In this document: piece after piece, positions 10,083 through 44,993 of the stretch | Layout of the letters: each line of letters begins with the position of its first letter | Position numbering within the stretch: position 1 is the stretch's first letter | Source of the DNA: an uncultured Eubacteriales bacterium | Lineage (GTDB): Bacteria > Bacillota > Clostridia > Peptostreptococcales > Anaerovoracaceae | Assembly (NCBI GenBank): GCA_902786355.1 | Contig: CADABZ010000009.1 | Location: forward strand, 19,498 to 83,497 | Direction of reading: 5' to 3' | Length of the DNA stretch: 64,000 bases | The notes under the pieces: model-generated | Told to the model about the DNA's origin: nothing | The model's database searches: none | Seen by the model: the letters and a program-made list of their open reading frames with translations, nothing else | Translations under genes and position numbers: made by a program

Positions 10083-10979
10083 ATGGGTGAAGGACTGAGA
10101 ACAGGAGAAAAAAGCATCAGCAGATCGAAAGCCGAACTGCTTTTCACCATGCTGCTCTTCGGGACAATAGGAACCTTGTCGAGGTTCATCGACATGCCTT
10201 CGGGTGTCATATGTCTTGGAAGAGCATTTTTCGGTGTGATCATAATAATCATCGTGATAACATTGCGAAAGCAGAGTCTGGACTAGGAGGCTATTAGGCG
10301 CAATGCCGGATGGATCCTGCTCAGCTCTGTATTCATGTGCCTCAACTGGATATGCCAGTTTGAAGCATTCAAGCATACGACTATCGCGGCCGGGACACTC
10401 TGCTATTACATGCAGCCTGTCTTCTATATCCTTGCCGGCGCAATAGTTCTGAGAGAGAAGCTGTCATCAAGAAAAATGCTGTGTGTGATCATCGCATTCT
10501 GCGGTATGATACTTGTATCAGGAGTCCTTCAGACCGGCCTGAAGCTGTCGGAGCTGAAAGGGGCGCTGTACGGTGTTACCGGAGGCTTCTTCTATGCGAT
10601 GGTCGTGCTGATCAACAAGTACATGAAGGATATATCCCCGCTCAACACTACGATCGTACAACTTGCTCTTGTATCTGTCATAATGCTGCCATACTGCTAT
10701 GTGACGGGACTGTTTGCGGAAGCAACTATTACGGCCAGAGGGATGATCTGCCTTCTTATTCTCGGATTCCTGCATACGGGAATCGGTTATATCATATATT
10801 TCGATGCAGTCAACAGACTGCCGGCGCAGACAGTAGGCATACTCAGCTACATCGACCCAGTGGAAGCGGTGCTGCTTTCAGCGTTTTTCCTGAAAGAGCC
10901 TGTGACCGTATTTACCATTGCCGGAGCTGTTATGATCCTCGGGGCTGCGGCATACAGTGAGCTTGGAGAAAATGGATAG
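10083..10979 (+). pseudogene. EamA/DMT-family transporter interrupted by one in-frame TAG (10284-10286)
   Basis: Track ORFs 10083-10286 and 10335-10979 are in the same frame. Read-through gives ...LRKQSLD*EAIRRNAGWILLSSVFMCLNWICQFEAFKHTT..., a continuous 10-TM EamA architecture. Confidence 0.7.
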
Positions 10980-11839: not shown

Positions 11840-13018
11840 ATGAAGTACAGAAAAGACAGATACGGAAATGAACTCTCACAGCTGGGATACGGCTGCATGA
11901 GATTCACAAGAAAAGGCGCGCAGCCGGATTATGAGAAGGCCGAGCGCGAGATCATGCATGCGATCGACTGCGGCGTCAACTATTTTGACACTGCATACGC
12001 ATACCCGGGAAGCGAAGAGACTCTCGGCAGGATACTCAGCGAAAACGGAGTAAGAGACAAGGTCAATGTAGCTACGAAGCTGCCTCAGTATCTGATGAGG
12101 TCGATCAAGGCTGTCGACAGGACATTCAGAGAAGAACTCGAAAGGCTCAGGACTGACCACGTAGATTACTATCTGATGCACATGTTCACAGATATCTCGG
12201 AGTGGGAGCGTCTAAGATCACTGGGCATAGAGAAATGGATCAGCGAGCGCAAGGCGGAAGGCAGCATCAGGCAGATCGGCTTCTCATATCATGGAGATAC
12301 GGATATGTTCCTCAGGATCCTTGATGCCTATGACTGGGATTTCTGTCAGGTCCAGTACAACTACCTTGATGAGACGAGCCAGGCAGGACGCAAGGGCGTC
12401 ATGGCTGCAGCTGAGAAAGGCATCCCTGTCATAATAATGGAGCCTCTCAGAGGAGGAAAGCTCGTCAATCTGCCTGTGGGAGCAAGGCGCGAACTCAGAG
12501 AAAGCGGCACAGGCTACTCAGCAGCTGAGCTCGGACTCAGATGGCTGTGGGATCAGAGCGAGGTAACAGTCGTGCTTTCGGGAATGAACTCCATGGAGAT
12601 GCTCGACGAGAACCTCAGGATCGCTTCGGATGCGATGCCGGGGAATTTTACAGCAGAGCATCACGCACTTGTCGACAGGATCAGGGGGATCATCAGAGAG
12701 AAGGAAAAAGTAGGCTGCACAGGCTGCAGATACTGCATGCCTTGTCCTCAGGGAGTCGATATTCCGGGGACCTTCTACTATTACAATCTCATGTATATAG
12801 AGGGAAAGAAAGCTGGTGTAAGATTCGAATACGCCAGGAATGTGGGACTTCAGAAGGAAGCAGGCTTTGCATCCGCATGCGTCGGATGCGGAAAGTGCGA
12901 GATGCACTGCCCTCAGCATATCAAGATAAGGGATATGCTGAAGAAAGCAGACAGAGACTTGAGACCTCTGCCTTACAGGATAGGCATGTCTGTGGCCAGG
13001 AAGGTTTTTTCAAGATAA
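11840..13018 (+). CDS. Aldo/keto reductase fused to a 2x[4Fe-4S] ferredoxin-like C-terminal domain
   Basis: The AKR N-terminus is YGCMRF...NYFDTAYAYPGSEE...DYYLMH. The C-terminus carries CTGCRYCMPCPQGV and CVGCGKCEMHCPQH motifs. Confidence 0.85.
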   Translation: MKYRKDRYGNELSQLGYGCMRFTRKGAQPDYEKAEREIMHAIDCGVNYFDTAYAYPGSEETLGRILSENGVRDKVNVATKLPQYLMRSIKAVDRTFREELERLRTDHVDYYLMHMFTDISEWERLRSLGIEKWISERKAEGSIRQIGFSYHGDTDMFLRILDAYDWDFCQVQYNYLDETSQAGRKGVMAAAEKGIPVIIMEPLRGGKLVNLPVGARRELRESGTGYSAAELGLRWLWDQSEVTVVLSGMNSMEMLDENLRIASDAMPGNFTAEHHALVDRIRGIIREKEKVGCTGCRYCMPCPQGVDIPGTFYYYNLMYIEGKKAGVRFEYARNVGLQKEAGFASACVGCGKCEMHCPQHIKIRDMLKKADRDLRPLPYRIGMSVARKVFSR

Positions 13019-13036: not shown

Positions 13037-13630
13037 ATGCTGGCTAAAGCACATATAACGGCAGGAATGGCTGCTGCTTTTTCAATAATAATGCCGGCAG
13101 ATGCAGAGACGGCGCTGACCGTTGTCGCGGGAGCATCGCTTGGCTGCCTCGTATGCGACATAGACTGCGACAATCCGTCTGAGAAGTCAGACTCGGCACA
13201 CTGGAGACGGGTGATGATCGCTGTCTTCGCTGCAGCGCTGGCGGCTGACCATCTCCTGGACGGAATCATGACTCGGACTCTGGCAGAAAGCAATCCGTAT
13301 ATCTCCTGCGCAGGGATCGCGGGCTTTGTGCTGACGTGCGCATTTGCGAGCATTTCCGATCACAGGGGATTCTCACATTCGCTGCCGGCTCTCGCTATAG
13401 AGACGGTATTCGTGAAGATGGCATTTCCCGCAGCAGCTGAAGCATTCGCGATTGCCTTCATAACTCATCTGATACTGGATCTTATGAACAAAAAGCCGGT
13501 CAGACTGCTCTATCCTCTGAGAAAGGGGTTCTGTCTTGGCTGGTTCTATGCGGACAGACTCGCCAACAAAGTTTTTGCAGCTGCCGGTAGTGTATGGCTC
13601 ATCCTGGCGGTCATCGTAAGCCTGAGGTGA
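13037..13630 (+). CDS. Membrane-bound metal-dependent hydrolase, YdjM/DUF457-like
   Basis: It contains H..G near the N-terminus, SDHRGFSHSL, and ITHLILDLMNK motifs, with several TM helices. Confidence 0.65.
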   Translation: MLAKAHITAGMAAAFSIIMPADAETALTVVAGASLGCLVCDIDCDNPSEKSDSAHWRRVMIAVFAAALAADHLLDGIMTRTLAESNPYISCAGIAGFVLTCAFASISDHRGFSHSLPALAIETVFVKMAFPAAAEAFAIAFITHLILDLMNKKPVRLLYPLRKGFCLGWFYADRLANKVFAAAGSVWLILAVIVSLR

Positions 13631-13632
13631 AG

Positions 13633-14547
13633 ATGGAAGAACAGAGGCATAAGAGCAACAGCGGGAATATCGCCGCTGGCACTGTGATAACTCTCACAGG
13701 TGCCGGGCTGTGGGGCCTTAACGCCGTAGTGAGCAAATATCTGATGGCGCGCGGCCTCGATACGATGTGGGTCGTCAACTTCAGGATGATCATGTCGGGT
13801 ATCGTGCTGCTTATCGCTGCCGCATTCAGAAATCCCGGAGGCTTCTTCGATATATGGAAAGACAGAAGGTCTGTGATACGGCTCCTTATAATAGCCGCTT
13901 TCGCCTTCGGCGTATGCCAGACGACTTACTATCTGTCTATCGATTACAGCAACGCAGGAATAGCGAGCGCTATCCAGCAGACTGCGCCGGTGTTCGTGCT
14001 TATAGCAGTCATCATCAGGGAGCACAGGCTTCCCCGAAGAGCAGAGCTGCTGACTCTGCCGCTTGTAATATTCGGATCGTTTCTCATAGCTACTCACGGA
14101 GATATCCATGCACTGGCTGTTGATCCATTGGCCCTGCTGTTCGGGCTGATCTCAGCTCTGACGTGCGCGCTGTATATGGTGCTTCCGTCTGAACTGATAA
14201 AACGATACGGCACATTTGAGACAGTAGGATGGGGCCTCTTCCTGGGAGGCTGCATGATAGCTCCTTTCTGCAGACTGTGGGAATTCCCGGCTGCATGGGA
14301 CGGAGCGCTGATAGCCGGAATGATATTCATAATCCTGCCGGGTGCAGCGATAGCATTCGCGATGTTCCTCTACGGAACGAGCATAGTTGGTCCTGTAAAA
14401 GGCGGGGTGTATAATCTGTTTGAGCCGGTCGTGGCTGTTACGGCTTCCGCGGCACTGCTCGGACAGAGCTTTCACATAGCGGAGCTTCTCGGCATAGCGG
14501 CGATACTGCTGGGCATAGCCATCCTTACAGTATCGAAGGCCGAGTGA
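13633..14547 (+). CDS. EamA/DMT-family transporter
   Basis: It has 10 predicted TM helices in two EamA repeats. The ATG at 13633 is preceded by GAGGTGA, and the track start at 13594 overlaps the previous gene. Confidence 0.8.
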   Translation: MEEQRHKSNSGNIAAGTVITLTGAGLWGLNAVVSKYLMARGLDTMWVVNFRMIMSGIVLLIAAAFRNPGGFFDIWKDRRSVIRLLIIAAFAFGVCQTTYYLSIDYSNAGIASAIQQTAPVFVLIAVIIREHRLPRRAELLTLPLVIFGSFLIATHGDIHALAVDPLALLFGLISALTCALYMVLPSELIKRYGTFETVGWGLFLGGCMIAPFCRLWEFPAAWDGALIAGMIFIILPGAAIAFAMFLYGTSIVGPVKGGVYNLFEPVVAVTASAALLGQSFHIAELLGIAAILLGIAILTVSKAE

Positions 14548-15227: not shown

Positions 15228-15748
15228 GAAAACTTCTTGTAGTAGTGGATATGCAGAACGATTTTATCGACGGATCGCTCGGGACTCCCGAGGCTGTCGC
15301 CATCGTTGAAAACGTGAAGAACAAGATCAGAGAGTATGACCTGAAGGACGTCTTCGTGACTATGGACACGCATACTCCTGACTATCTTGATACACAGGAA
15401 GGAAGGAATCTTCCTGTAGTACATTGTGTAAAAGGCACCGAAGGATGGCAGATAAGAAGCGACATCCGGGAGCTCCTGCAGGGTGCCAGGATATATGAGA
15501 AGCCGACGTTCGGAAGCACCGAGCTTGCCCGCGACATTGCTGCCGAGGCTGCAGGCGGAGAGATTTCGGAGATCGAGCTTATCGGATTGTGCACTGATAT
15601 CTGCGTTGTTTCCAACGCGCTTCTCATTAAAGCAGTACTGCCGGAAGTCCCTGTAGCTGTAGATGCATCATGCTGTGCCGGAGTAACTCCGCAGTCGCAT
15701 CAGGCAGCTCTTGAGACCATGAAGATGTGCCAGGTACACATCAGGTGA
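15224..15748 (+). CDS. Cysteine hydrolase, isochorismatase/nicotinamidase family
   Basis: The start overlaps the Nudix stop as ATGA. It has VVVDMQNDFIDGSLG and a catalytic-Cys region LIGLCTDICV. Confidence 0.75.
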   Translation: MRKLLVVVDMQNDFIDGSLGTPEAVAIVENVKNKIREYDLKDVFVTMDTHTPDYLDTQEGRNLPVVHCVKGTEGWQIRSDIRELLQGARIYEKPTFGSTELARDIAAEAAGGEISEIELIGLCTDICVVSNALLIKAVLPEVPVAVDASCCAGVTPQSHQAALETMKMCQVHIR

Positions 15749-15786
15749 TAACAGATCTTTCATGAATGCGAGGGGCATGGTTAGTG

Positions 15787-15816
15787 TTGTCTGTCCAGTT
15801 AAGGCTGTGATAAAAT
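15787..15816 (+). promoter_or_regulatory. Candidate sigma-A promoter (TTGTCT -18 nt- TGaTAAAAT)
   Basis: The -35-like TTGTCT is at 15787-15792 and an extended -10, TGATAAAAT, ends at 15816. This is 31 nt upstream of the TM1266-like ATG. Confidence 0.45.
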
Positions 15817-15846
15817 ACGGCTATCGTTTCGTACAAGGAGATACAA

Positions 15847-16092
15847 ATGGAAACAAGAGTCGCAGTGATAAGCATAATTGTCACTAAGGCAGATCAGGTA
15901 GAAGTACTCAACGACCTTCTCCATGAGTACTCGGAATTCATCCTCGGCAGGATGGGAGTCCCGTACAGAGAGAAGGGTCTTAATATAATAAGCGTTGCCA
16001 TAGATGCACCGATGGACAGGATCAATGCCCTGAGCGGTGCGCTTGGAAGACTTGACGGCATCAATGCCAAGGTAGTCTACGCAAAAGCCTGA
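15847..16092 (+). CDS. TM1266-family ACT/NikR-C-like small regulator (usually annotated 'iron-only hydrogenase system regulator')
   Basis: In this 81-aa protein, RVAVISIIV...LNDLLHEYSEFILGRMGVPYREKGLNIISVAIDAP...ALSGALGRL matches my memory of the TIGR03959/TM1266 family. Confidence 0.6.
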   Translation: METRVAVISIIVTKADQVEVLNDLLHEYSEFILGRMGVPYREKGLNIISVAIDAPMDRINALSGALGRLDGINAKVVYAKA

Positions 16093-16098
16093 AGTCTT

Positions 16099-16122
16099 GC
16101 CCTGAAGGGGACAGGGCTTTTT
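16099..16122 (+). terminator. Intrinsic terminator / attenuator hairpin between TM1266-like gene and nifH-like gene
   Basis: GCCCTG (16099-16104) pairs with CAGGGC (16112-16117), followed by TTTTT (16118-16122). It starts 7 nt after the stop codon and ends 17 nt before the SD of the next gene. Confidence 0.55.
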
Positions 16123-16154
16123 GTGTTGAAAAAACGATCGGAGGATCACATATA

Positions 16155-16916
16155 ATGGTCAAAATAGCAGTTTACGGCAAAGGGGGTATCGGGAAATCCA
16201 CGACAGTTTCCAACGTCTCGGCAGCACTTGCAGACATGGGATATAAGGTCATGCAGATAGGCTGCGATCCGAAGGCGGACTCCACTGCCAGTCTGCACGG
16301 AAAAGGCAGCATAACTACAGTGCTTGATCTTGTCAGGAAGCACAAGAATGATTTTGCGCTTGAAGACATGGTCTGCGAAGGCTACGGCGGTGTTATCTGT
16401 GTTGAAGCCGGAGGACCGACTCCTGGACTCGGATGCGCCGGGCGCGGGATAATCGCAGCCCTTGAGAAGCTCAAAGAAAAAGGCGCATACAAAGTCTATA
16501 AGCCTGACGTAGTGATCTATGACGTCCTCGGTGATGTCGTGTGCGGAGGCTTTTCGATGCCGATGAGAGGCGGATACGCTGACAAGGTATTCATCATCAC
16601 ATCAGGCGAGAACATGGCGATCCATGCTGCAGCCAACATTGCAGTCGCCCTGGAAGGATTCAAAGACAGAGGCTATGCAAGCCTCGGCGGCATCATACTC
16701 AACCACAGGAATGTGAGAGATGAGGATGCCAAGGTCGCAGAGCTTGCTGATGATATCCATTCTGAGGTCATCGGAGAGCTTACAAGGAGCGAGACTGTGA
16801 CCGATGCAGAGGATCTTGGCAAAACTGTCATAGAGGCGTTCCCTGAGAGCGCTATGGCAGACGAATACCGTACACTGGCAGAAAAGCTGACCGCGATATG
16901 CGGGATAGAAAAATAA
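16155..16916 (+). CDS. NifH/BchL-family ATPase-reductase (nitrogenase iron protein-like, 'NflH'-type)
   Basis: It keeps the P-loop GKGGIGKST, switch I DPKADST, and the two [4Fe-4S] ligands in GLGCAGRG and DVVCGGFSMP. At 253 aa it is shorter than true NifH. Confidence 0.9.
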   Translation: MVKIAVYGKGGIGKSTTVSNVSAALADMGYKVMQIGCDPKADSTASLHGKGSITTVLDLVRKHKNDFALEDMVCEGYGGVICVEAGGPTPGLGCAGRGIIAALEKLKEKGAYKVYKPDVVIYDVLGDVVCGGFSMPMRGGYADKVFIITSGENMAIHAAANIAVALEGFKDRGYASLGGIILNHRNVRDEDAKVAELADDIHSEVIGELTRSETVTDAEDLGKTVIEAFPESAMADEYRTLAEKLTAICGIEK

Positions 16917-16920
16917 AGCT

Positions 16921-18333
16921 ATGCTTAAGAAACTGAACGAAGATGCAGGACATAAGGATATTCCGGGAATCCGCATCGCCGATGCTGATTTTCCGGCACC
17001 TTTCAGGTCCGGGCTCGAGTATTCTTCTCCGGCGCGAGGTACATGGAACATCGTACACACCGGAATGCTGATACCGGAAGCTCACGAGATATACGTGTGC
17101 GGAGCAGGCTGCCTCAGAGGGGTAGTGCTCACGGCAGCGGAAATGGGGACCATGGACCGGTTCTCCACGGTCGCGATAAGAGAGAACAATCTCCTCGACG
17201 GAGATATGGAGGATCTCATAATCGAAGGTGTGAGCGATATCCTCGGAAAGCTTCCGAAGAGACCTCCTGCGGTCCTGGTATATACCAGCTGCATCCATCA
17301 TTTTACAGGCACAGATCTGGATGTGGTGTATGACAGACTTGCGGAGCGTTTCCCTGATGTAGATTTTATAGACTGCTACATGAACCCTATCATGAGAAAA
17401 AGCGGCCTGACACCGGATCAGCTCATGAGATCAAGGCTGTACATGCTCCTTCATGAGCGCCCGCAGTCTGATAACGCCGTAGCTATAATAGGCAACGACC
17501 TTCCGACTCTTGAAGACAGCGACCTTATGAGACTCCTTCGCGCGTCGGGTCTCAGGATACATGAGATCACTTCATGCAGGACTTATGAGGAATACCAGGA
17601 GATGGCAGAGAGTGTGCTGTACATCTCGTATAACCCGGATGCTGCTCCCGGAGGAGATATGCTTTCGGAAAGACTCGGCGGCAGACATCATTTTATGAAG
17701 CTGAGCTTCGATATGGATGAGATCGATGAAGAATTCGACAGGCTTGCGGAAGTGATCGCAGAGAAATGCTTCTCAGAAAAGGAAGGAGCTGAAGAGAAGC
17801 TTATAGAAGCTCTTTCAGTCATAAGAAGCGAAGGCAGAAACGAAGTATCTGACGCTGTCAGCGAGACTCTCGGTCTCATAGGAGATACTCCTGTAGTGAT
17901 AGACTACACGTACTGCCCGAGACCGCTCGGACTGGCAAGGATGCTCCTGGATAACGGCTTCAATGTGACAAAGGTCTATGCAGACAGTCTGCCGGCGGCG
18001 GACAGACCTTCTTACGAATATCTCAGGGAAAACTATCCGGATCTCATGATCCATCCTACAGTCCATGCATCGATGCGGTTCGCATCAACTGAGAACTCCA
18101 TCTCAGATGCTGAAGAGGCTGCTTCGGGCTGCAGGGTGCTGGCTATAGGTCAGAAGGCGGCGTATTTCGAAAACACAGATCATTTTGTGAATGTGGTCGA
18201 AGGCGGCGGAATGATAGGCTATAACGCGATAACCGGAGTTCTCCGGCTGATGCGTGAAGCATATAATACGGAAAAACCTATGAAGGAACTGGTCCAGATC
18301 AAAGGACTGGGATGCGAAGTGTGCGTAAGATAA
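16921..18333 (+). CDS. Nitrogenase component-1-type oxidoreductase, NifD/NifE-like subunit
   Basis: This 470-aa protein has Cys motifs YVCGAGCLRG, YTSCIHHF and FIDCYMNP in the N-terminal third. It starts 4 nt after the nifH-like stop. Confidence 0.75.
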   Translation: MLKKLNEDAGHKDIPGIRIADADFPAPFRSGLEYSSPARGTWNIVHTGMLIPEAHEIYVCGAGCLRGVVLTAAEMGTMDRFSTVAIRENNLLDGDMEDLIIEGVSDILGKLPKRPPAVLVYTSCIHHFTGTDLDVVYDRLAERFPDVDFIDCYMNPIMRKSGLTPDQLMRSRLYMLLHERPQSDNAVAIIGNDLPTLEDSDLMRLLRASGLRIHEITSCRTYEEYQEMAESVLYISYNPDAAPGGDMLSERLGGRHHFMKLSFDMDEIDEEFDRLAEVIAEKCFSEKEGAEEKLIEALSVIRSEGRNEVSDAVSETLGLIGDTPVVIDYTYCPRPLGLARMLLDNGFNVTKVYADSLPAADRPSYEYLRENYPDLMIHPTVHASMRFASTENSISDAEEAASGCRVLAIGQKAAYFENTDHFVNVVEGGGMIGYNAITGVLRLMREAYNTEKPMKELVQIKGLGCEVCVR

Positions 18334-18345
18334 TAACCAGGTACT

Positions 18346-19599
18346 ATGAAACAGACAGCAAGTGTAATTTCAACTTATTCAGCGGATGTCATGGGCGTGT
18401 GCTCCGCTCTGTATGAGCTCGGAGGCATGACTGTCATGCATGATGCTTCGGGATGCAATTCGACATATACTACTCATGATGAGCCTCGCTGGTTCGACAT
18501 GGACAGCATGGTATATATTTCCGGCCTCAGTGAGATGGAGGCAATAATGGGTGATGATGATAAGCTGATCGAAGATATATGCGAGGCAGCTTCCGATCTT
18601 CACCCGAAGTTCATAGCTCTGGCTGGCTCGCCGGTCTCGGCTATGACAGGCTTTGACTACGAGGCAGTTGCCGGGGTCATAGAAAGCAGGACAGGGATAC
18701 CGGCTCTCGGCTTTCCGACTACCGGGATGAACACATATATCCATGGAGCTTCAATGGCTCTTGAAGGTATAGTAAGCAGATTCATCGATGATCCGAGTGA
18801 TGAATGGATAGAAGAGAAACTCCACACCGTCAGGACCTCAGATGAAGAGGTTCCGTACCGCGTCAATCTGCTCGGCCTCACGCCTCTGGATTTCTCTGTC
18901 AACAGCACGGTCGATTCTCTGACAAAATGGCTTGAGGACAGGGGCTTTGAAGTAGGCGCCAGACTTGCTATGGGAAGCAGCCTTGAGGAGATCGGAAGAG
19001 CTTCGGAATCCGAGGTCAACCTGATCGTTTCAGCAGCAGGACTCGGTGCTGCAAGGATGATGTACAGAAAATTCGCTATACCGGGAGTCATAGGTCTGCC
19101 TGTAGGAGCAAAACAGAGCGATCTCCTTGAAGATGCTCTGCGGCGTACAGCGTCAGAATACCGCACCTTCCGGACATCGGGAGAGGTTTTCGAAAGATCC
19201 GGACTTACAAGGATCAAAATCCATCCGAATGACCTTGACCCTGCCAGGGATGAAGAGCTCGTTGCTGTGATAGGAGAAGGCATAACCAGCCTCTCTGTTG
19301 CCAATGCTATAAGATTTGAGACCGGACGCAGGACCAGAGTGCTCTGCGCTACAGAGTGTCCGGATAATATACTCAGGCCATGGGACTGCATGACGCCTGA
19401 TGAAGATGACATCGTACCTAAACTCTCAGATGCGACAGTGGTTATTGCAGATCCTCTCTACAAGCCGATATGCCCGCCTCATGCGAAGTTCATAGAGCTT
19501 CCGCATGAAGCATTTTCCGGAAGGATCTACAGAAAAGATATCCCGGATCTCATAAGAGATTTTGACAGCTGGACTGAAGCTAACGGGATAAGATTATGA
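18346..19599 (+). CDS. Nitrogenase component-1-type oxidoreductase, NifK/NifN-like subunit
   Basis: This 417-aa protein has N-terminal motifs GVCSALYE and DASGCNSTY, typical of the beta-type subunits of the NifDK/NifEN/BchNB superfamily. Confidence 0.75.
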   Translation: MKQTASVISTYSADVMGVCSALYELGGMTVMHDASGCNSTYTTHDEPRWFDMDSMVYISGLSEMEAIMGDDDKLIEDICEAASDLHPKFIALAGSPVSAMTGFDYEAVAGVIESRTGIPALGFPTTGMNTYIHGASMALEGIVSRFIDDPSDEWIEEKLHTVRTSDEEVPYRVNLLGLTPLDFSVNSTVDSLTKWLEDRGFEVGARLAMGSSLEEIGRASESEVNLIVSAAGLGAARMMYRKFAIPGVIGLPVGAKQSDLLEDALRRTASEYRTFRTSGEVFERSGLTRIKIHPNDLDPARDEELVAVIGEGITSLSVANAIRFETGRRTRVLCATECPDNILRPWDCMTPDEDDIVPKLSDATVVIADPLYKPICPPHAKFIELPHEAFSGRIYRKDIPDLIRDFDSWTEANGIRL

Positions 19600-19603
19600 T
19601 GAA

Positions 19604-19637
19604 AAAGCTCCCGGGTCTCATACGACGGGAGCTTTCA
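19604..19637 (+). terminator. Terminator hairpin after nitrogenase-like operon
   Basis: AAAGCTCCCG pairs with CGGGAGCTTT in a 10-bp stem. Only a short T tract (TTTCAAT) follows. Confidence 0.55.
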
Positions 19638-19664: not shown

Positions 19665-20564
19665 GTGGATCAGATCAAAAGAAGTGAACAGAACAAAGGA
19701 TATCTGATGATCCTTACAACGGGGGCGCTCTGGGGGACGATAGGGCTTTTTGCAACGTTCCTGTCAGAGCTTGGAATGAACGCGGGGGCCGTGGCTTTTT
19801 TCAGAGTGCTGTCGGCGAGCATCATGCTGGCCCTGATCCTGCTTATTAAAGGAAGGGGCTTCAGCCAGTTCCGCGTCAGCCGCAAGGGCCTGATATCCTG
19901 CATTCTTGTAGGTTTCGTATCTCAGGCATTCTACAATGTCTGCTATATGAACACTATCGAGCAGAGCGGCATGGCAACTGCGGCGGTGTTCCTGTACACT
20001 TCCCCTGTTTATGTTGCGCTTATATCCTGGCTGGCTTTTCATGAGCCGCTGACACGCAATAAGATTCTTGCGATACTTATCAATATAGCGGGATGTATCC
20101 TGACAGTTACAGGAGGGGATTTCTCCGATATGAAGATCTCCGGCTTCGGTCTGATAATGGGTATACTCGCAGGATTCACATATTCTCTGCTTCCGATCCT
20201 GTCAAGGCTCGGAGCCGACCGTGAGGATCCGTATGCTGCAGCTTTCTACGGCCAGGCATTCGGAGCACTTCTGCTGTTCTTCCTTATAAGACCATATAAC
20301 GGCATCGGGACACCATTCACTGGCGTCGTTCTGCTGCTGCTGATCGGATTCGGCATAATTCCTTCTGCGATGGCTTACATAGTCTACTATAACGGCCTGA
20401 GCAAAATAACCGAGACCTCGAGGGTCCCGGTTCTCGCTTCCGTTGAGACAGTCGTTGCAGCTCTTATAGGGCTTGTTGTATTCGGCCAGAGCCTGGGTAT
20501 CGTCAAGATAGCCGGCATCGCCCTTGTCATGATATCGATCGCTCTGATGAATAAAGACAGCTGA
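19665..20564 (+). CDS. EamA/DMT-family transporter
   Basis: It has 10 TM helices in two EamA repeats. The track start is GTG 19665, with an alternative ATG at 19707. Confidence 0.8.
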   Translation: MDQIKRSEQNKGYLMILTTGALWGTIGLFATFLSELGMNAGAVAFFRVLSASIMLALILLIKGRGFSQFRVSRKGLISCILVGFVSQAFYNVCYMNTIEQSGMATAAVFLYTSPVYVALISWLAFHEPLTRNKILAILINIAGCILTVTGGDFSDMKISGFGLIMGILAGFTYSLLPILSRLGADREDPYAAAFYGQAFGALLLFFLIRPYNGIGTPFTGVVLLLLIGFGIIPSAMAYIVYYNGLSKITETSRVPVLASVETVVAALIGLVVFGQSLGIVKIAGIALVMISIALMNKDS

Positions 20565-38532: not shown

Positions 38533-39726
38533 ATGGCGGGTATGAATCAGACTCCTACGGGAGAAAGGGTGCATATAGGTTTCTTCGGAAGCAGGAACGC
38601 AGGAAAATCCAGCGTAGTCAACGCTGTGACCGGCCAGGATCTTGCTGTTGTATCGGATGTGCGCGGTACGACCACTGACCCTGTGAGCAAGGCCATGGAG
38701 CTTCTGCCGCTTGGGCCTGTCGTGATAATTGATACCCCCGGCTTCGATGATACAGGAAATCTCGGAGAGCTGAGGGTGAGGAAGACCCGCCAGATACTCA
38801 ATAAAACAGATATCGCAGTGCTGGTCGTCGATGCTGCAGAAGGCATGAAAGACTGCGACAGAGAACTCACGGGGCTGTTCAAAGAGAAGAATATCCCGTA
38901 TATCACAGCGTTCAATAAGAGTGATCTTATCTGTGAGCACTCTGAGGAAGGCTTGATGTATGTGAGCGCTCTTACGGGCGAAGGAATCAATGAGCTCAAG
39001 GAGAAGATCGCTTCCATGAAGCCGGACGGCAGCGACAAGCGCCTTGTTGCAGATAAGATAAACGCCGGAGATCTCGTGGTCCTGGTCGTACCTATAGATA
39101 AAGCTGCTCCGAAGGGACGCCTCATTCTCCCTCAGCAGCAGACAATAAGAGATATACTCGATTCCGGAGCTGTATCCGTAGTCGTAAGGGAAACGGAGCT
39201 TGCTGATACCCTGGAGAAACTCGGACGCAGGCCTGACCTCGTTATTACCGACAGCCAGGTATTCGGGAAGGTCGACAGCATCATTCCTGACGAAGTGCCG
39301 CTGACATCTTTTTCCATACTGATGGCCCGCTACAAGGGACTTCTGGATGATGCAGTGCGGGGCGTGACGGCAGTCGACTCGCTTAAGGACGGCGATACTG
39401 TGCTGATTGCAGAAGGCTGCACTCATCACAGGCAGTGCGGGGATATAGGATCTGTCAAGATCCCGAAATGGCTTACAGAATATACCGGAAAAACTCTTAA
39501 CTTTCGGACCGTGAGCGGGACCGAATTCCCTGAGGATCTGAGTCCTTATGCGCTGGTGATCCACTGCGGCGGATGTATGCTCAGTGAGCGTGAAGTGCGC
39601 GCAAGGGCAAAAAACGCTGCAGATCAGGGTATACCGATCACCAATTACGGCACCATGATAGCCTTCGTGCACGGAATACTGAAGCGAAGTCTCGGGATTT
39701 TTCCGGACCTGGAAGAACAACTGTGA
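38533..39726 (+). CDS. hydF: [FeFe]-hydrogenase H-cluster maturation GTPase HydF
   Basis: It has the GTPase G1 motif GSRNAGKSS, G3 DTPGFDD, and the C-terminal cluster motifs GCTHHRQCGDIG and IHCGGC (CxH...HCxxC). Confidence 0.85.
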   Translation: MAGMNQTPTGERVHIGFFGSRNAGKSSVVNAVTGQDLAVVSDVRGTTTDPVSKAMELLPLGPVVIIDTPGFDDTGNLGELRVRKTRQILNKTDIAVLVVDAAEGMKDCDRELTGLFKEKNIPYITAFNKSDLICEHSEEGLMYVSALTGEGINELKEKIASMKPDGSDKRLVADKINAGDLVVLVVPIDKAAPKGRLILPQQQTIRDILDSGAVSVVVRETELADTLEKLGRRPDLVITDSQVFGKVDSIIPDEVPLTSFSILMARYKGLLDDAVRGVTAVDSLKDGDTVLIAEGCTHHRQCGDIGSVKIPKWLTEYTGKTLNFRTVSGTEFPEDLSPYALVIHCGGCMLSEREVRARAKNAADQGIPITNYGTMIAFVHGILKRSLGIFPDLEEQL

Positions 39727-39973: not shown

Positions 39974-41644
39974 ATGAGAAAGTATAAATGCAAATACGAC
40001 ATAGAATTCCAGGATCTCAAGGAGATCATGGATTTCGTGGCAGACAAATACGGTAAGAATACCGGCTTTATCTATAAAAGTGCAGACAGAAAGACCAAGA
40101 CAGAGATCACGTACAAGAAATTCCGTGAAGACCTCGATGCTGTAGGTGCATATCTTATAAGCAAGGGTCTTAAGGGAAAGAAGATCGTAGTTATAGGACC
40201 GAATTCTTATCAGTGGCTGGTTGCATACTATGCAGTTGTCATCAATGTAGGCGTAGTAGTTCCTCTTGATAAGGGCCTGCCTGAGGAGGAAGTAGTCAAT
40301 TCCCTGATCAAGTGCAAGGCTGATGCGATAATCTACGATGACAGCCTCAAGCTGGACTTCAGCGAGATCATAACTAATCCGGAAATAACTGTCAAAACAC
40401 TCATTCCGATGAGTGACTTCACACAGGAGAAGATGCCTGAACTGGCAGCAATGATCAAAGAATACAAGCCTCAGTTCAAGGTTATAGACAAGCACGCAGT
40501 GGACATCATACTGTTCACTTCGGGTACATCAGCTGATGCCAAAGCAGCACAGCTTACTCAGAGGAACATAGCTTCCACGATCTCCGCGATGAGGAAGGTA
40601 GAGCCTATATATGAAGATGATGTAGAGATGATACTCCTTCCGCTCCATCACGCTTTCGGAAACCAGGGCGTGCTTATGTTCATAAGCAACGGCTGCACCA
40701 ATGTTTTCTGCAGCGGACTTAAGTATGTACAGAAGGAGCTGGCTGAATACGGAGTCACAGCATTCTTCTGCGTACCTCTGATCATAGAATCCATGATCAA
40801 CAAGGTCCTCAAGACAGCTGAGAAGGAAGGCAAGCTCAAGAAGCTTGAAATGGGACGCAAGATCTCCAAGGCTCTTATGAAAGTCGGTATCGATGCAAGG
40901 CGCAGGATCTTCAAGGACGTTATTGACGGCCTTGGCGGAAAACTGAGATTCCTGATCAGCGGCGCTGCATCTCTCGATCCGAAGATCCTTGAATATGCAA
41001 CAGACTTCGGAATCCTTACAGTACAGGGTTACGGACTTACCGAAACAGCTCCGACCATTGCATCAGAGAGCTACTTCTATCGCAAACCTGGATCGGTCGG
41101 ACATGCTATGCCTGGAGTCGAGGTCAAGATCAATGAACCTGATGAGGATGGTATAGGAGAGCTGTTCGCCAGAGGTCCTAATATCATGAAAGGTTATCTT
41201 GATGATGATCAGGCCAACAGAGATGTTTTCGTCGATGGCTGGTTCAACACAGGAGACCTGGCGCGCATAGACGATGAGGAGTATATCTTCCTGACAGGCC
41301 GTAAGAAGAATGTAATAGTTCTGAAGAACGGCAAGAACATATATCCGGAAGAGATCGAAGTTCTGATCGACAAGATCCCGTATGTTGTTGAGAATGTTGT
41401 CATGGGCGAAGAAGAGGGCGATGACTACAGACTCGTTGCACATGTGGTATATGATCCTGAGGCTGAGGCCCTCAAGGGAAAGAGCGCAGAAGAGATACAG
41501 GCTATAGCTGATGCAGATATCGAGAAGATCAGCGCAGAGATGCCGAAATTCAAACGTATCAAAGAAGTCTACCTCAGAACAGAACCATTTGAGAAGACTA
41601 CGACGCAGAAGATCAAGAGAAGGAAGATCCGCAAGGCAGAATAA
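39974..41644 (+). CDS. AMP-dependent synthetase/ligase (long-chain acyl-CoA synthetase-like)
   Basis: It has the AMP-binding motifs LFTSGTSADAKA, GYGLTET, TGDLARID and LKNGKNIYPEEIE. Confidence 0.8.
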   Translation: MRKYKCKYDIEFQDLKEIMDFVADKYGKNTGFIYKSADRKTKTEITYKKFREDLDAVGAYLISKGLKGKKIVVIGPNSYQWLVAYYAVVINVGVVVPLDKGLPEEEVVNSLIKCKADAIIYDDSLKLDFSEIITNPEITVKTLIPMSDFTQEKMPELAAMIKEYKPQFKVIDKHAVDIILFTSGTSADAKAAQLTQRNIASTISAMRKVEPIYEDDVEMILLPLHHAFGNQGVLMFISNGCTNVFCSGLKYVQKELAEYGVTAFFCVPLIIESMINKVLKTAEKEGKLKKLEMGRKISKALMKVGIDARRRIFKDVIDGLGGKLRFLISGAASLDPKILEYATDFGILTVQGYGLTETAPTIASESYFYRKPGSVGHAMPGVEVKINEPDEDGIGELFARGPNIMKGYLDDDQANRDVFVDGWFNTGDLARIDDEEYIFLTGRKKNVIVLKNGKNIYPEEIEVLIDKIPYVVENVVMGEEEGDDYRLVAHVVYDPEAEALKGKSAEEIQAIADADIEKISAEMPKFKRIKEVYLRTEPFEKTTTQKIKRRKIRKAE

Positions 41645-41717
41645 TAACCAGTTTGCCAGGGGATGAAATGATCGGTCAGTTACTTATCTGCAGCAGTTAT
41701 GAAGGGGGGGATTACAA

Positions 41718-42389
41718 GTGAAGAGAAGTATCAGAAATATGTTCGTTGCCATGATGCTCATTATGGCGATGGTTGTGAGCTTTTCAGGCTGCGGCCCTAA
41801 GAAGCCTACCGCAGATGATGCAAAGAACTATGTTCAGGCTGTACTCGATGTAATGTGTACAGGTGACTATGATCATTCTGTTGAGATATCAGATATCGAA
41901 GAAGGCAAGGAAACTGAGATCCGTGATGAAGCGATAGATGAGATCATTGATCAGCTCGGTGCACAATCATCACTCAACGAAGAAAACAAGGCGGGACTCA
42001 AGGAATTCCTGATCTCAGCATTCGCCAAGGCAAAATACTCCGTAGGAGATGCAGTCGAATCTGAGGACGGAGGCTATGATGTCACAGTTACGATCGAGCC
42101 ACTGCAGGCATTCGCTGCTATGGGCGACGGCTTTCAGGAGAGGCTTCTTGAAAAAGTTCAGGAGGACCCGAATGCATATCTGGCAATGTCACAGGACGAG
42201 CAGATGAACTATCTGATGTCTCTGGCTATCGGCTGGCTCAATGAAGACCTTGAAAATCCTTCCTATGATGATCCGGTAGACGTAGTAGTCCACTACGGAC
42301 TTCTCGATGAAGAGAAAAATCTCTACGGATGCACAGAGAGTGAGGGCAAGAAGCTCGGTGAGAAGCTGTTCTCCCTGACAGGAATGTAG
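41718..42389 (+). CDS. Hypothetical lipoprotein
   Basis: The GTG start follows AAGGGGGGG. It has a signal peptide with lipobox SFSGCG. Confidence 0.6.
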   Translation: MKRSIRNMFVAMMLIMAMVVSFSGCGPKKPTADDAKNYVQAVLDVMCTGDYDHSVEISDIEEGKETEIRDEAIDEIIDQLGAQSSLNEENKAGLKEFLISAFAKAKYSVGDAVESEDGGYDVTVTIEPLQAFAAMGDGFQERLLEKVQEDPNAYLAMSQDEQMNYLMSLAIGWLNEDLENPSYDDPVDVVVHYGLLDEEKNLYGCTESEGKKLGEKLFSLTGM

Positions 42390-42444
42390 GATCAGAAGAC
42401 CGTCACTGACGGGGCGTGTCGTTATTTGAATAATCAATACAGGT

Positions 42445-42485
42445 AACGGGCAGGATAGTCTAATTCTATTTTGCCCGTTCTTTAT
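42445..42485 (+). terminator. Terminator-like hairpin
   Basis: AACGGGCA pairs with TGCCCGTT, followed by CTTTAT, a weak T tract. Confidence 0.5.
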
Positions 42486-42594
42486 GTGATAGTAAAATTT
42501 AAACAGTACAAACTCTGTTTTTGTGCAGCCTGAAACGGGCCGGAAGCACCGGAGTTACCAATTGTAACACTATGATATTAAGGGAGAAAGAATT

Positions 42595-43840
42595 ATGGCA
42601 GACAATCAGAAAATGTGGGGCGAACTCGGAATGAATCTCGAGATGCACGATCAGCTTTGTGCAGTACTTCCGGGAGCGATTGGAGACGTATTCATGTCCC
42701 AGGAGAACAGACCTGAAGCTATGGACTACTTTGACATGGTCCTCGCTGATGTTCACGGTCTCAGACCTGCTGAGCTCGTAGAGTTCAGAAAGAACGGCGG
42801 CAAGGTATTCGGCACATTCTGCGCTTATGTACCAGACGAAGTTATCGTAGCTGCTGACGCTATTGCTACAGGCCTCTGCGCAGGATCACAGTTCTGGGTA
42901 CCTGGCGGTGAGAGATATCTTCCTGCCAACACATGCCCGCTGATCAAGGCTATGCTCGGAGCAAGATTCGACAGAACATGCCCGTTCTACAGACTCGCTG
43001 ACGTATATATCGGAGAGAACACCTGTGACGGAAAGAAGAAGGCTACCAATGCATATCATGGATCTTCCACAGATGAAGAGACCTAAGGACTACCTGAAGT
43101 GGGCTGATGAGATCAAGGATCTCAAGGCTCTCGTAGAGAAGGAAACAGGTAACGAAGTAACAGCTGAGAAGCTCGCTGAAGGAATCAAGACCATCAACGC
43201 TAAGAGAGCTGCACTTCAGAGACTGTATGATGAGAGAAAGAACCTCAACGTTCCTATCTCCGGAACAGACACACTGCTGATCAGCCAGATCGCTTACTAT
43301 GATGATCCTAAGAGATTCGCAGCAATGGTCAACAAGCTGTGCGATGAGCTCGACAAGAGAGTTGCAGACGGCGTCAATGTTGCAGAAGGCAAGAAGAGAA
43401 TCCTCATCACAGGAACACCTATGGCTATTCCTAACTGGAAGATGCACAATCTCATCGAGACAAGCGGCGGCGTAGTAGTATGCGAAGAGACCTGCACAGG
43501 TACAAGATACTTCGAGAATCAGGTAGACGAGAGCGGCAAGACTGTTGATGAGATGATCCAGCACATCGCTGACAGATACATGGGCATCAACTGTGCATGC
43601 TTCACTCCTAACACAGGAAGATTCGATGATGTTATCAGACTCGCTAAGGAATACAAGGCTGACGGAGTTATCGATGTCAACCTCATGTTCTGCCAGACAT
43701 ACGATATCGAGGGCAGAAGCCTCGAAGAGAGATGCAAGGCAGAGGGAATCCCATTCCTCGGACTCGAGACAGACTACACTGACAATGATGCTCAGCAGCT
43801 CAAGACAAGAGTCGGCGCATTCATCGAGATGCTTGGCTAA
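42595..43840 (+). pseudogene. Double-cubane-cluster / 2-hydroxyacyl-CoA-dehydratase-family (HgdAB-like) reductase, split by a +1 frame change near 43042-43058
   Basis: Track ORFs 42595-43086 (frame 1) and 43025-43840 (frame 2) together give one ~414-aa HGD-D-family protein. The N-terminal part ends ...YIGENTCDGKKKA and the C-terminal part continues ...HIMDLPQMKRPKDY... Each half alone is truncated. Confidence 0.65.
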
Positions 43841-43901
43841 TTAACAGAGCACCGTATGAGCGGTCAGACGACTTGCTGAAGCGGCACAATTTTTGCTTAA
43901 A

Positions 43902-43934
43902 AAGGGCGGGATATCTTTCCGCCCTTTATTTCTG
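43902..43934 (+). terminator. Rho-independent terminator
   Basis: AAGGGCGGG pairs with CCGCCCTTT, followed by ATTTCT. Confidence 0.65.
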
Positions 43935-43966
43935 AATAATGATATATATGGTATAATAACCGAGCT

Positions 43967-44230
43967 ATGTCAGAATATTTACACTATTATATTTTGTTTC
44001 AGAATCACACGGACGCTATGGCAATGTACCGCACTCTCAAGAGCAGCGGTATCTATGCACAGATAAGCCCTACACCGAGAGAACTCAGCGTATGCTGCGG
44101 AGTATCTCTGCTTGTTCATGGTGAAGATGTTGATGCGATCAAAGCTATCTCCTCAGAGAAAGGGCTCAATTATCTGTCTGTAGACGGACTTAACAACACT
44201 TTTGACAATACGAGGCACAAATATGGCTAA
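43967..44230 (+). CDS. DUF3343-like small protein (putative S/Se-carrier-like)
   Basis: This 87-aa protein has the YYILFQNHTDAMAMYRTLKSSGI...PTPRELSVCCG pattern typical of DUF3343, recalled from memory. Confidence 0.5.
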   Translation: MSEYLHYYILFQNHTDAMAMYRTLKSSGIYAQISPTPRELSVCCGVSLLVHGEDVDAIKAISSEKGLNYLSVDGLNNTFDNTRHKYG

Positions 44231-44993
44231 AAAATACATAGGAATCGACATCGGATCTACAGCATCCAAGGTATGCGTGCTGGAGGAAGGCTGCGAGCCT
44301 GTTTTTGAGGTGCTCCCTACAGGCTGGAACAGCAAGATAACAGCAGGTATTATCAGAGAGGATCTTGAGAAGAGATACGGAAAGATCGAGGAAGACTCTC
44401 AGGTAGTTGCGACCGGATACGGAAGGATCAGCGTTGAGTATGCGGACCATGTCATAACAGAGATAAGCTGCCACGGAAGAGGCGGATATGAGATGATAGG
44501 CCGTGACTGCACTATAATAGATATCGGCGGACAGGATACCAAGTATATCAACGTTGTCGGAGGAAGGCCTGTCGATTTTCTGATGAATGATAAATGTGCT
44601 GCCGGAACGGGCAAGTTCATCGAGGTAATGGCCAACAGGCTCGGACTTACGATCGAGGAACTCTTTGAGCTCGCTGAGATAGGCAATCCGATCTCTATAA
44701 GCTCTCTGTGCACGGTATTCGCAGAGTCAGAGGTCATCAACTACATGGGTGAAGGCAGAAGCCGTGAAGATCTTGCTGCCGGCGTTATCGACTCTGTGGC
44801 ACTCAAGGTCGCTACTCTCGTTCAGCGCAAAGAGCTTCAGGACACGATAATCATCACCGGAGGATTCAGCAATAATGAGTTCTTCGCAGGACTGTTAAGC
44901 AAGAAGCTGGGCAAAACAGCTCTTGCGATGCCTCTTGGAAGATACGCAGGCGCATATGGTGCCGCACTTCTTGCAAAAGAAAAGGCAAAATAG
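44223..44993 (+). CDS. BcrAD/BadFG-type ATPase: 2-hydroxyacyl-CoA dehydratase / double-cubane reductase activase
   Basis: It has the ASKHA-fold N-terminus IGIDIGSTASK, then DIGGQDTK, and the two cluster-bridging Cys contexts NDKCAAGTG and SSLCTVFAESE. Confidence 0.85.
   Translation: MAKKYIGIDIGSTASKVCVLEEGCEPVFEVLPTGWNSKITAGIIREDLEKRYGKIEEDSQVVATGYGRISVEYADHVITEISCHGRGGYEMIGRDCTIIDIGGQDTKYINVVGGRPVDFLMNDKCAAGTGKFIEVMANRLGLTIEELFELAEIGNPISISSLCTVFAESEVINYMGEGRSREDLAAGVIDSVALKVATLVQRKELQDTIIITGGFSNNEFFAGLLSKKLGKTALAMPLGRYAGAYGAALLAKEKAK

Follow-up and report, generated by a model that had tools for sequence, protein, structure and literature searches.

A minimal nitrogenase-like gene cluster in an uncultured Anaerovoracaceae bacterium and the conserved association of its family with MolBC-type importers and hydrogenase maturases

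The stretch of DNA analysed here, referred to as the window, comprises 64,000 nucleotides of an uncultured Eubacteriales bacterium of the Anaerovoracaceae (assembly GCA_902786355.1, contig CADABZ010000009.1, positions 19,498 to 83,497). It carries a gene cluster encoding a nitrogenase-like (Nfl) Fe protein, NflH, and two subunits related to nitrogenase component 1, NflD and NflK, preceded by a gene for a TM1266-family protein. An earlier reading made from the letters of the window, hereafter the sequence-only reading, had described these genes as a NifH/NifD/NifK-type operon with a TM1266-type regulator. The four open reading frames (ORFs), their lengths of 81, 253, 470 and 417 aa and, from the ORF list, the gaps of 4 nt between nflH and nflD and 12 nt between nflD and nflK were all confirmed. 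The features of the locus are as follows.

15787-15816, plus strand: sigma-70-like promoter candidate 5' of the TM1266-like gene (consensus scan: TTGTCT-18-TAAAAT, extended TG)
15847-16092, plus strand: TM1266-family ACT-like protein, 81 aa (PF21699, 2e-29; TIGR03959, 103.7 bits against a cutoff of 60.8)
16099-16125, plus strand: intrinsic-terminator-like hairpin between the TM1266 gene and nflH (GCCCTG-AAGGGGA-CAGGGC at 16099-16117, followed by TTTTTG)
16155-16916, plus strand: nflH, NifH-family Fe protein, 253 aa (PF00142, Fer4_NifH, 1e-86)
16921-18333, plus strand: nflD, component-1 alpha-like subunit, 470 aa (PF00148, Oxidored_nitro, 1e-13)
18346-19599, plus strand: nflK, component-1 beta-like subunit, 417 aa (PF00148, 3e-30)

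The promoter candidate begins exactly at 15787, where the sequence-only reading had set the start of the locus, but it is weak evidence, because such sites were no commoner in the region than in shuffled sequence. The hairpin does not figure in that reading. Hairpin sites, at 15 found against 5.4 expected in the site scan, were in excess, so some of them are real; the 6-bp terminator hairpin of the list lies 38 nt before nflH.

All sequence motifs quoted in the sequence-only reading (GKGGIGKST, DPKADST, GLGCAGRG, DVVCGGFSMP, YVCGAGC, YTSCIHH, GVCSAL, ASGCNS and GSPVSAMTGFD) were found in the translations. Its description of NflH as a complete electron-delivering Fe protein was upheld, with the P-loop and switch I conserved and the bridging cysteines C94 and C130 invariant in 68 of 68 relatives. 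NflH nevertheless scored below every curated equivalog cutoff, with 318 bits against 394 for nifH (TIGR01287), 311 against 402 for CfbC, 199 against 345 for BchL and 162 against 331 for BchX, and it thus scored much closer to NifH and CfbC than to BchL and BchX. It was 82% identical to a Blautia homologue and 61-63% identical to the Fe proteins of Treponema and Sporomusa Nfl clusters, and among canonical proteins it shared 49% identity with NifH of Clostridium butyricum, 44% with BchL and 40% with BchX. Its best match in the PDB was 9fmg_D (1e-74), the Fe-protein chain of a methylthio-alkane reductase complex entry.

The two component-1 subunits were placed far less readily. Even with a family profile, the best PDB sequence match of NflD was NifE at E=0.02. 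BLASTP of NflD against NifD/E/K/N and BchB/Y/Z returned no significant match (E>4 for BchY and BchZ), and PDB sequence searches gave no match to MarD (9fmg_A, 9d9u_A) at E<=1. An AlphaFold (AF2) model of NflD (pLDDT 72, pTM 0.73) matched only component-1 folds, namely AnfK, VnfK, MarD, BchN and NifEN, at E-values of ~1e-13 to 1e-14 and 12-17% identity and with no preferred subfamily. The NflK family profile matched NifEN (1e-19), NifD (3e-18) and BchB (6e-12) in the PDB, and the AF2 model of NflK was nearest to ChlB/BchB and NifN/NifE. Against the NifE cutoff of 505 bits (TIGR01283), NflD reached 15.9 and NflK 59; for the CfbD model (TIGR03282), NflK scored 23 of the required 268 bits and NflD gave no score, and the figure for BchB was 36 against 490. 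Judged by these scores, a position of D and K inside the NifDK, NifEN, BchNB or BchYZ clades is not compatible with the data, and NflD and NflK are a very divergent, heteromeric component-1 pair in which K is less extreme than D. The sequence-only reading had assigned the H/D/K system to the 'group IV / Nfl' branch; both the scores below curated cutoffs and the ligand differences given below place it outside Nif, NifEN, DPOR, COR, CfbCD and Mar.

Homologues of NflD are numerous. More than 3900 were found at E<=1e-5 among the candidates scored in a set of 5.8 billion proteins; those listed were 65-81% identical to NflD, and the few that were named at all were called 'nitrogenase' or 'hypothetical protein' only. 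An exhaustive search of 1.84 billion cluster representatives gave 833 matches at E<=1e-3 and 238 at 1e-30. Because only 833 representatives reach E<=1e-3, the family is a discrete one that does not merge into the canonical component-1 families. With a single genome scanned for each species, a D-encoding stretch was found in at least 546 species genomes, for the most part of Anaerovoracaceae, Lachnospiraceae and Oscillospiraceae, at 52-81% identity, which shows that the family is conserved and is not decaying. Identical D proteins also occurred on several independent contigs. The closest relatives of the window copy were rumen and goat-gut metagenome-assembled genomes, and a search of a plasmid collection with D gave a single match, from Treponema. 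The abundance of this family in Clostridia of the human gut and the rumen means that microbiome surveys overcount 'nifH'.

Conservation of the potential cluster ligands was analysed across 75 family members. In NflD, C60, C64, C124, H126, H127, C152, C219 and C468 were invariant and C465, C332 and H382 nearly so; in NflK, C37, H32 and H44 were invariant, C19 was kept in 90% and C334 was also conserved. HMMER aligned D C124 with NifE C124 / NifD C154, and K C37 (within HDASGC) aligned with NifN C44 / NifK C95. D C64 fell at the position of NifD C88 / NifE C62 in a MAFFT alignment, made at less than 20% identity, that was bridged by Treponema and Sporomusa proteins. In the MAFFT alignment D had no Cys at the positions of NifD C62 or C275, and D C152 was aligned with the conserved, non-ligand PCEG Cys of NifD. 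Within the set of P-cluster cysteines (alpha C62, C88 and C154; beta C70, C95 and C153), therefore, only the equivalents of alpha C88, alpha C154 and beta C95 are Cys. The sequence-only reading had proposed a Ser in place of the third P-cluster Cys of NifK; the Cys is indeed missing from NflK, and the residue aligned with NifK C153 / NifE C124 is Pro96 and not a Ser (GSPVSAMTG versus ATCVTAMTG).

As D C64, D C124 and K C37 were invariant in 75 of 75 members, the orthologues keep their ligand cysteines and the genes are not decaying. With three canonical ligands kept, two in D and one in K, we infer a single simple cluster, probably of the [4Fe-4S] type, at the D/K interface, the situation being nearest to that of NifEN or DPOR; the simpler inter-subunit cluster put forward in the sequence-only reading is thus probable. 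D C60 or K C19 could provide a fourth ligand. A second metal site is hinted at by the further invariant Cys and His residues of D, among them the C-terminal pair C465-x-x-C468.

The gene neighbourhood was analysed by tblastn and ORF clustering of 80 loci, the best of the 546 stretches, with gene identities assigned by Pfam and NCBIfam; the denominators (62, 66 or 80) vary by partner. These loci derive from rumen and gut Anaerovoracaceae/'Mogibacterium', Lachnospiraceae (Blautia, Faecalimonas, Lachnoclostridium) and Oscillospiraceae. The consensus order was TM1266, FecCD permease, ATP-binding cassette (ABC) ATPase with a C-terminal TM1266-like domain, optional HydE, nflH, nflD, nflK, Peripla_BP_2 lipoprotein (the substrate-binding protein, SBP) and optional HydF. 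The partners recurred as follows.

TM1266, upstream of nflH: 61/62 loci
ABC ATPase fused to TM1266: 55/62 loci
FecCD permease: 54/62 loci
SBP (Peripla_BP_2): 54/66 loci
HydE: 26/62 loci
HydF: 20/66 loci
EamA: 0/80 loci

HydE or HydF was present in 35/80 loci. The neighbouring HydE proteins scored 532-554 bits against a cutoff of 255 and the HydF proteins 536-559 against 326, and HypE, where present, was also far above its equivalog cutoff. A minimal layout of TM1266-H-D-K, as in the window, was found in at least seven relatives (L002, L003, L004, L008, L010, L033 and L049). The sequence-only reading had envisaged a self-contained module of regulator, reductase and EamA transporter. Its TM1266 component is borne out by these counts, the partners that do recur (the MolBC/FecCD-type importer, HydE/HydF and, in the loci described next, HypFCDE) were missed by it, and its EamA component is not borne out: the EamA gene next to nflK is incidental, because EamA accompanies none of the 80 loci, the window holds three EamA paralogues within 10 kb (10335-10979, 13594-14547 and 19665-20564), and in the closest relative, L002, nflK is directly followed by a beta-glucosidase gene with no EamA gene between.

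Loci of more distant relatives extended this picture. Among those at 37-40% identity, one (L089) had the order HypF-HypC-HypD-HypE-TM1266-H-D-K-HydF-HydE, a second (L094) had the same type of order with H and D fused, and a third (L095) had HydF-H-D-K-H2-D2-K2-HypF with HydE upstream. A fourth (L091, 6699-12487) had TM1266-D-K, a 151-aa protein with no Pfam match, HydF and HydE with no adjacent nflH, a layout that suggests that D/K may work with no Fe protein of its own or may rely on one encoded elsewhere. D directly followed HypE in L092 (35% identity), and in L088 fused component-1 proteins were clustered with NifH, HydE, HypE and HypD. Hyp and Hyd genes thus occurred together in L088, L089, L094 and L095. 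Fusions and duplications seen in the family include a D-K fusion of 850 aa (P0257, L093:7001-9553), the H-D fusion of 729 aa (P0303, L094:6165-8354), a 1010-aa component-1 protein (P0319, L088:6749-9781) and the tandem H-D-K-H2-D2-K2 array (L095:6173-12988).

At 27-34% identity (L083, L087 and L096), genes for SBP, FecCD and ATPase lay directly upstream of H-D-K, and a Treponema saccharophilum megaplasmid had the same gene set, except that there the importer part lay downstream of H-D-K. Because genes for SBP, FecCD and ATPase adjoin H-D-K even in these distant relatives and in Treponema, the importer is the most ancient partner, and the association with TM1266, Hyd and Hyp marks the sub-branch that holds the window copy. 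A hidden Markov model (HMM) built from HydE, seeking its radical-SAM relatives, detected neither HydG nor NifB relatives in 99 loci or in the window.

The company of the Hyd and Hyp maturases could be taken to mean that NflDK is their end user, that is, a new redox enzyme whose active-site cofactor sits on the extra invariant Cys and His residues of NflD and comes from Hyd/Hyp-type maturases, NflH being the ATP-dependent reductase of this enzyme. Such a role would find a use for the conserved residues of D beyond the interface cluster (C60, C152, C219, C332, H382 and the CxxC of C465/C468), and HypFCDE-TM1266-HDK-HydF-HydE operons with no hydrogenase structural gene within 7 kb are consistent with it. 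However, the Treponema branch does not keep C60 or C219, C152 aligns with the non-ligand Cys of NifD mentioned above, and the HydE and HydF of these loci look like ordinary orthologues that are probably the only copies of their organisms. We therefore consider this explanation decidedly unlikely.

The leading analogy of the sequence-only reading was MarHDK; NflHDK would then be an organosulfur reductase of the Mar/Isr type, used in anaerobic sulfur assimilation. The best solved match of NflH is indeed the Fe-protein chain of 9fmg, and sulfur-related genes do occur beside single clusters. In L015 a YeeE/YedE-type sulfur transporter gene (1565-2659) precedes the TM1266 gene, and in L077 (8760-9944) and L066, both from Lachnospiraceae, a gene of the cysteine desulfurase / SclA-like selenocysteine lyase family starts at the nflK stop codon. 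Against this, the NifB/MarB-like radical SAM protein was found in no locus nor in the window with the HydE-built HMM, D lacks the Cys275-equivalent cofactor ligand, and D, besides having no sequence match to MarD in the PDB, matches the MarD structures (9fmg_A, 9d9u_A) as a model no better than it does other component-1 proteins. Genes of cysK/metY-type sulfur assimilation were not recurrent, and no S-box or other riboswitch was found. An organosulfur role thus appears very improbable; nothing in the gene context points to either this or the tetrapyrrole role that the sequence-only reading had also entertained.

The MolBC-A system belongs to the type II importers and takes up small oxyanions (molybdate/tungstate). 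The relatives' permease scored 258 bits to Haemophilus HI1471 (MolB) against 135-157 for FhuB, BhuU, HmuU and BtuC. The SBP profile matched 4ovk at 3e-56, MolA/HI1472 at 5e-29 and the nickel-binding CeuE of H. pylori at ~2e-16, with much weaker matches to binders of siderophores, heme and B12. By score, therefore, permease and SBP resemble the MolBC-A (HI1470/HI1471/HI1472) importer, from which the relatives' system differs in the C-terminal TM1266-like ACT domain of its ATPase. ABC ATPases with C-terminal regulatory domains, such as ModC and MetN, are trans-inhibited by their own substrate. By analogy, we infer that TM1266, both as a free protein and as the related tail of the ATPase, would sense the imported species or a derivative of it. 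The window TM1266-like protein matches the TM1266 structure (PDB 2nzc, 3e-12) and is a putative ligand-sensing regulator.

An importer of this general class also leaves room for salvage, in which NflHDK would reduce an imported organic metal chelate or tetrapyrrole (heme, a corrinoid, a chlorophyll derivative or a ferric siderophore) so as to release or remodel it, much as DPOR, COR and CfbCD reduce the rings of tetrapyrroles, and would share with hyd and hyp an iron-responsive regulation only. All characterised Nfl enzymes with only a [4Fe-4S] cluster act on tetrapyrroles (PMC13474568), the FecCD/Peripla_BP_2 class does carry siderophores, heme and B12, and the NflK model is nearest to ChlB/BchB. 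An Nfl cluster of another, more canonical lineage, met through H in L081 (Sporomusa termitida plasmid pSPTER, 631-13080), lies in an iron-chelate uptake locus of TonB-dependent siderophore receptor, AraC regulator, SBP, two FecCD permeases, ATPase, H-D-K and a PF00756 esterase; its H is 63% identical to the window H, and its D and K match Pfam at 1e-70 and 2e-48. However, the permease and SBP of the present family resemble MolB/MolA, a small-oxyanion importer, far more than they do the systems for heme, B12 or siderophores, tetrapyrrole or siderophore metabolism genes recur in none of the 80 loci, and nfl is interleaved with hydE and hydF in one gene string. We thus regard salvage as unlikely.

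A further conserved element was found in the non-coding sequence. In all Anaerovoracaceae-type relatives a structured leader RNA of 95-180 nt lies 3' of the TM1266 gene, ahead of FecCD or nflH; it is present at L013:2702-2843, L002:4943-5097 and L012:1897-2016 and in 28 other related loci. In its first helix (P1) CAUC pairs with GAUG, followed by an internal loop and then by C:G and U:A pairs. Tandem G.A/A.G pairs are kept in 23/25 and 21/25, the next 4-bp helix shows compensatory changes, and the distal hairpin is optional. RNAalifold on the leader alignment gave the terminator only, the upstream helix having been scored by hand. Downstream of the leader lies an intrinsic terminator, the 5' arm of which (CUUGCUUC) is complementary to the leader 3' strand (GAAGCAAG), so that by base complementarity the two can pair as an antiterminator. 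There was no match in Rfam 15, nothing credible having come up when the L013 leader and 11 related loci were scanned, and metagenome matches to a strict leader pattern were solely in this operon context. The leader is thus a candidate for a new riboswitch or TM1266-dependent attenuator. The layout of regulator gene, terminator and operon recalls attenuation of the HutP or PyrR type and suggests, by analogy, that a small ligand or TM1266 may control read-through. In the window the leader is deleted, its remnant at 16093-16125 being the 6-bp terminator, which is homologous to the relatives' terminator. Neither the Rfam gathering thresholds nor a permissive scan gave a riboswitch at 15600-16300 of the window, and known S-box, cobalamin, Moco and NiCo control is therefore excluded there.

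The surroundings of the cluster in the window include three further features of relevance.

19665-20564, plus strand: EamA/DMT transporter, 299 aa (PF00892, 3e-36), outside the conserved system
38533-39726, plus strand: hydF, [FeFe]-hydrogenase H-cluster maturation GTPase (TIGR03918, 559 bits against a cutoff of 326)
11840-13018, plus strand: fusion of an aldo-keto reductase with a 2x[4Fe-4S] ferredoxin-like tail, found repeatedly, if loosely, near nfl clusters

The window ORFs scanned were otherwise sugar-utilisation, transport and housekeeping genes. The sequence-only reading had reported no nif, bch or cfb genes, and none (nifB/E/N/V, bch or cfb) was found among the window ORFs scanned, which were about 40 of the larger ones. 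The window hydF, which stands alone amid sugar-utilisation genes 19 kb downstream of the nfl genes, is 70-73% identical to the HydF genes of Lachnospiraceae and Oscillospiraceae loci, which there lie just 3' of the nfl cluster, behind nflK and the gene for the SBP, and it is a possible functional partner of the nfl system. The window copy is thus a reduced version, TM1266-H-D-K only, in which the adjacent importer is absent and the leader RNA is lost.

Such losses raise the possibility that the cluster in this genome is a decaying or poorly expressed remnant, with importer and leader gone and a terminator placed directly before nflH. FecCD, ATPase and SBP are all missing from the window, the leader of the relatives has shrunk to the 6-bp hairpin, and some of the hairpin sites in the region must be real given their excess over expectation. 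In contrast, the three ORFs are full-length with all family-invariant residues kept, identical D proteins recur on independent contigs as mentioned above, and the seven or more related genomes noted earlier share the minimal layout. That the genes are a remnant is therefore scarcely credible.

Two other groups of window genes were recorded alongside. Downstream of hydF, at 39974-44993, lie an acyl-CoA ligase, a 223-aa protein without Pfam match, a gene resembling the D component of 2-hydroxyglutaryl-CoA dehydratase and a BcrAD/BadFG-type activator ATPase (44202-44993), which together form a second ATP-dependent low-potential reductase system in the window. The dehydratase-like gene contains a frameshift or a sequencing error, because it is split over two overlapping ORFs (42595-43086, profile positions 1-74; 43025-43840, positions 81-342). 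The aldo-keto reductase/ferredoxin fusion lies 2.8 kb upstream of the TM1266 gene, and its homologues adjoin nfl or HydF genes in at least seven loci (L043, L046, L049, L054, L055, L060 and L067), for example at L046:10913-11917, L049:3831-4940 and L054:10896-11852.

From gene context, and from that only, we tentatively propose that NflHDK is a reductase or scaffold driven by ATP, with an imported small metal species as its target and the maturation of metallocofactors, those of hydrogenases in particular, as its purpose. The MolBC-A-type (HI1470-72-like) importer would bring in a small metal species. ATP hydrolysis by the NflH dimer would then drive low-potential electrons through the D/K interface cluster, and NflDK would reduce or otherwise process the imported metal. 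The metal product may serve metallocofactor assembly with HydE and HydF, and with HypFCDE in the deeper branches, hydrogenase active sites being the obvious client. TM1266, free or fused to the importer ATPase, would sense the imported species or its product and shut the system down. On these terms the complex would be a metal-mobilising reductase or a NifH/NifEN-like assembly scaffold and not a catabolic enzyme.

Several points weigh against this proposal. Gene neighbourhood is indirect evidence, and adjacency to HydE or HydF is found in only about one third of the close relatives; co-location of Hyd and nfl genes could also reflect shared regulation by TM1266 and not shared chemistry. HypFCDE was found in none of the 80 close loci. 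In the 64-kb window itself there is no importer (FecCD, ATPase, SBP), no HydE and no HydG. For the MolBC-A class itself the evidence on the physiological substrate is weak, and 4ovk, the best match of the SBP, has no known ligand. On the structural side, the position of D C64 depends on the bridged, low-identity alignment described above, and hhalign detected no significant similarity between the D and K family profiles, so that positions in D are not transferable through K. Finally, in the literature on nitrogenase-like proteins, TM1266 and the Hyd/Hyp maturases no characterisation of this clade was found, a remark from 2012 (see below) being the only mention.

A bolder version of the proposal, to which we give little credence at present, is that NflHDK is a missing, ATP-dependent component of hydrogenase active-site biosynthesis in anaerobes. 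Working with HypFCDE and HydE/HydF, and without HydG, it would be a NifH/NifEN-like scaffold or reductase for an organometallic Fe(CO)(CN)-type cofactor, perhaps a heterometallic one through MolBC-type import; alternatively, NflHDK would supply the CO ligand anaerobically by reduction of CO2. If true, the machineries of nitrogenase and hydrogenase maturation would for the first time be functionally linked. Should the link to hydrogenase cofactor assembly be real, it would bear on open questions of how hydrogenase maturation obtains its metals and ligands in anoxic conditions, and on the H2 metabolism of gut and rumen; should it be regulatory only, the family would nonetheless represent a new system for ATP-driven processing of metals.

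The clade as such has been seen before. Dos Santos et al. 2012 (PMC3464626; BMC Genomics 13:162) reported a NifHEN-like clade in gut Firmicutes, namely Coprococcus catus GD/7 as well as Dorea longicatena, with the Cys pattern alphaC88 and alphaC154 (D/E-like) plus betaC95 (K/N-like), and noted its association with hydrogenase maturation proteins; beyond a one-line speculation they assigned no function. The nfl family shares with that clade the Cys pattern, the occurrence in gut Clostridia, the association with Hyd maturases and tandemly duplicated H-D-K genes. The window copy differs in being a minimal TM1266-H-D-K cluster with no adjacent hyd or ABC genes and with its hydF 19 kb away, and the 2012 account says nothing of the kind of importer, of the fusion with TM1266 or of a link to Hyp. 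The sequence-only reading, which had pointed to the poorly understood 'group IV / Nfl' branch, is supported in that no function has been published; the clade is not, however, an undescribed one. The review of North and Shafaat (July 2026, Chem Rev; PMC13474568) recognises Groups IV-A (Nfa), IV-B (CfbCD), IV-C (MAR), IV-F (ISR), V (DPOR/COR) and VI (Elusimicrobia), states that sulfur metabolism (for Group IV) and tetrapyrroles (for Group VI) are all that context has suggested so far, mentions neither metal importers nor hydrogenase maturases nor the context of this clade, and names the finding of NFL functions as one of the greatest challenges of the field. The nfl context thus offers a concrete, testable hypothesis apart from the sulfur and tetrapyrrole themes of the literature.

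Among characterised systems, NifH/NifEN is the closest working analogy to the proposed role, an Fe protein reductively inserting imported Mo into a scaffold-bound cluster. Both systems have an ATP-dependent Fe protein and a heteromeric component-1 scaffold with, in the case of nfl by prediction, a single interface [4Fe-4S] cluster; the NifEN ligands NifE C62, NifE C124 and NifN C44 occupy positions homologous to those of the nfl ligands, the K model lies near NifN/NifE, and NifH delivers reduced imported Mo to its scaffold. Unlike NifEN, nfl is without NifB and has no Cys at NifE C37 or at the L-cluster ligand NifE C250 / NifD C275. Nitrogenase proper (Groups I-III) differs in that NflH falls below the nifH cutoff, only three P-cluster Cys positions are kept, the C275 Cys is missing and no nifB/E/N was found among the window ORFs scanned.

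CfbCD, DPOR (BchLNB) and COR (BchXYZ) resemble nfl in that NifB and FeMo-co ligands are missing, the inter-subunit cluster is simple (in nfl by prediction) and the Fe protein carries its full set of ATPase and cluster motifs. However, the nfl scores lie below all of their equivalog cutoffs, and there are no tetrapyrrole genes in the nfl context. CfbD is homomeric, whereas nfl has a heteromeric D and K and a bacterial host, and no bch genes were found among the scanned window ORFs. MarHDK and IsrHDK (Groups IV-C and IV-F) share the H-D-K order, and among solved structures NflH is nearest to the Fe protein of the Mar complex. In contrast, Mar needs MarB/NifB and a complex cluster bound by Cys270 and His429, while nfl has no NifB-like gene, lacks that Cys and has no sulfur-assimilation context.

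Group VI of the Elusimicrobia (Meheust et al. 2020), compared here by description, likewise has no NifB, very divergent D and K subunits and at most four Cys at P-cluster positions. In that description Group VI also lacks C275/H442, and its NflH branches as sister to Group V. Its genes lie among many radical-SAM, B12 and HemN-like genes in Elusimicrobia, Gracilibacteria and Myxococcales, whereas the nfl clade is found in Bacillota and Spirochaetota with MolBC-type importers and Hyd/Hyp genes, and identity to true NifH is 49% for NflH against ~40% for Group VI. The window cluster therefore belongs to a known, uncharacterised kind, to which it adds a member in minimal form. To what was described in 2012 the present analysis adds the size of the family, the MolBC-type identity of its importer, the TM1266 fusion, the linkage to HypFCDE, neighbourhoods in which the HydE-built HMM detects no HydG, and the leader RNA.

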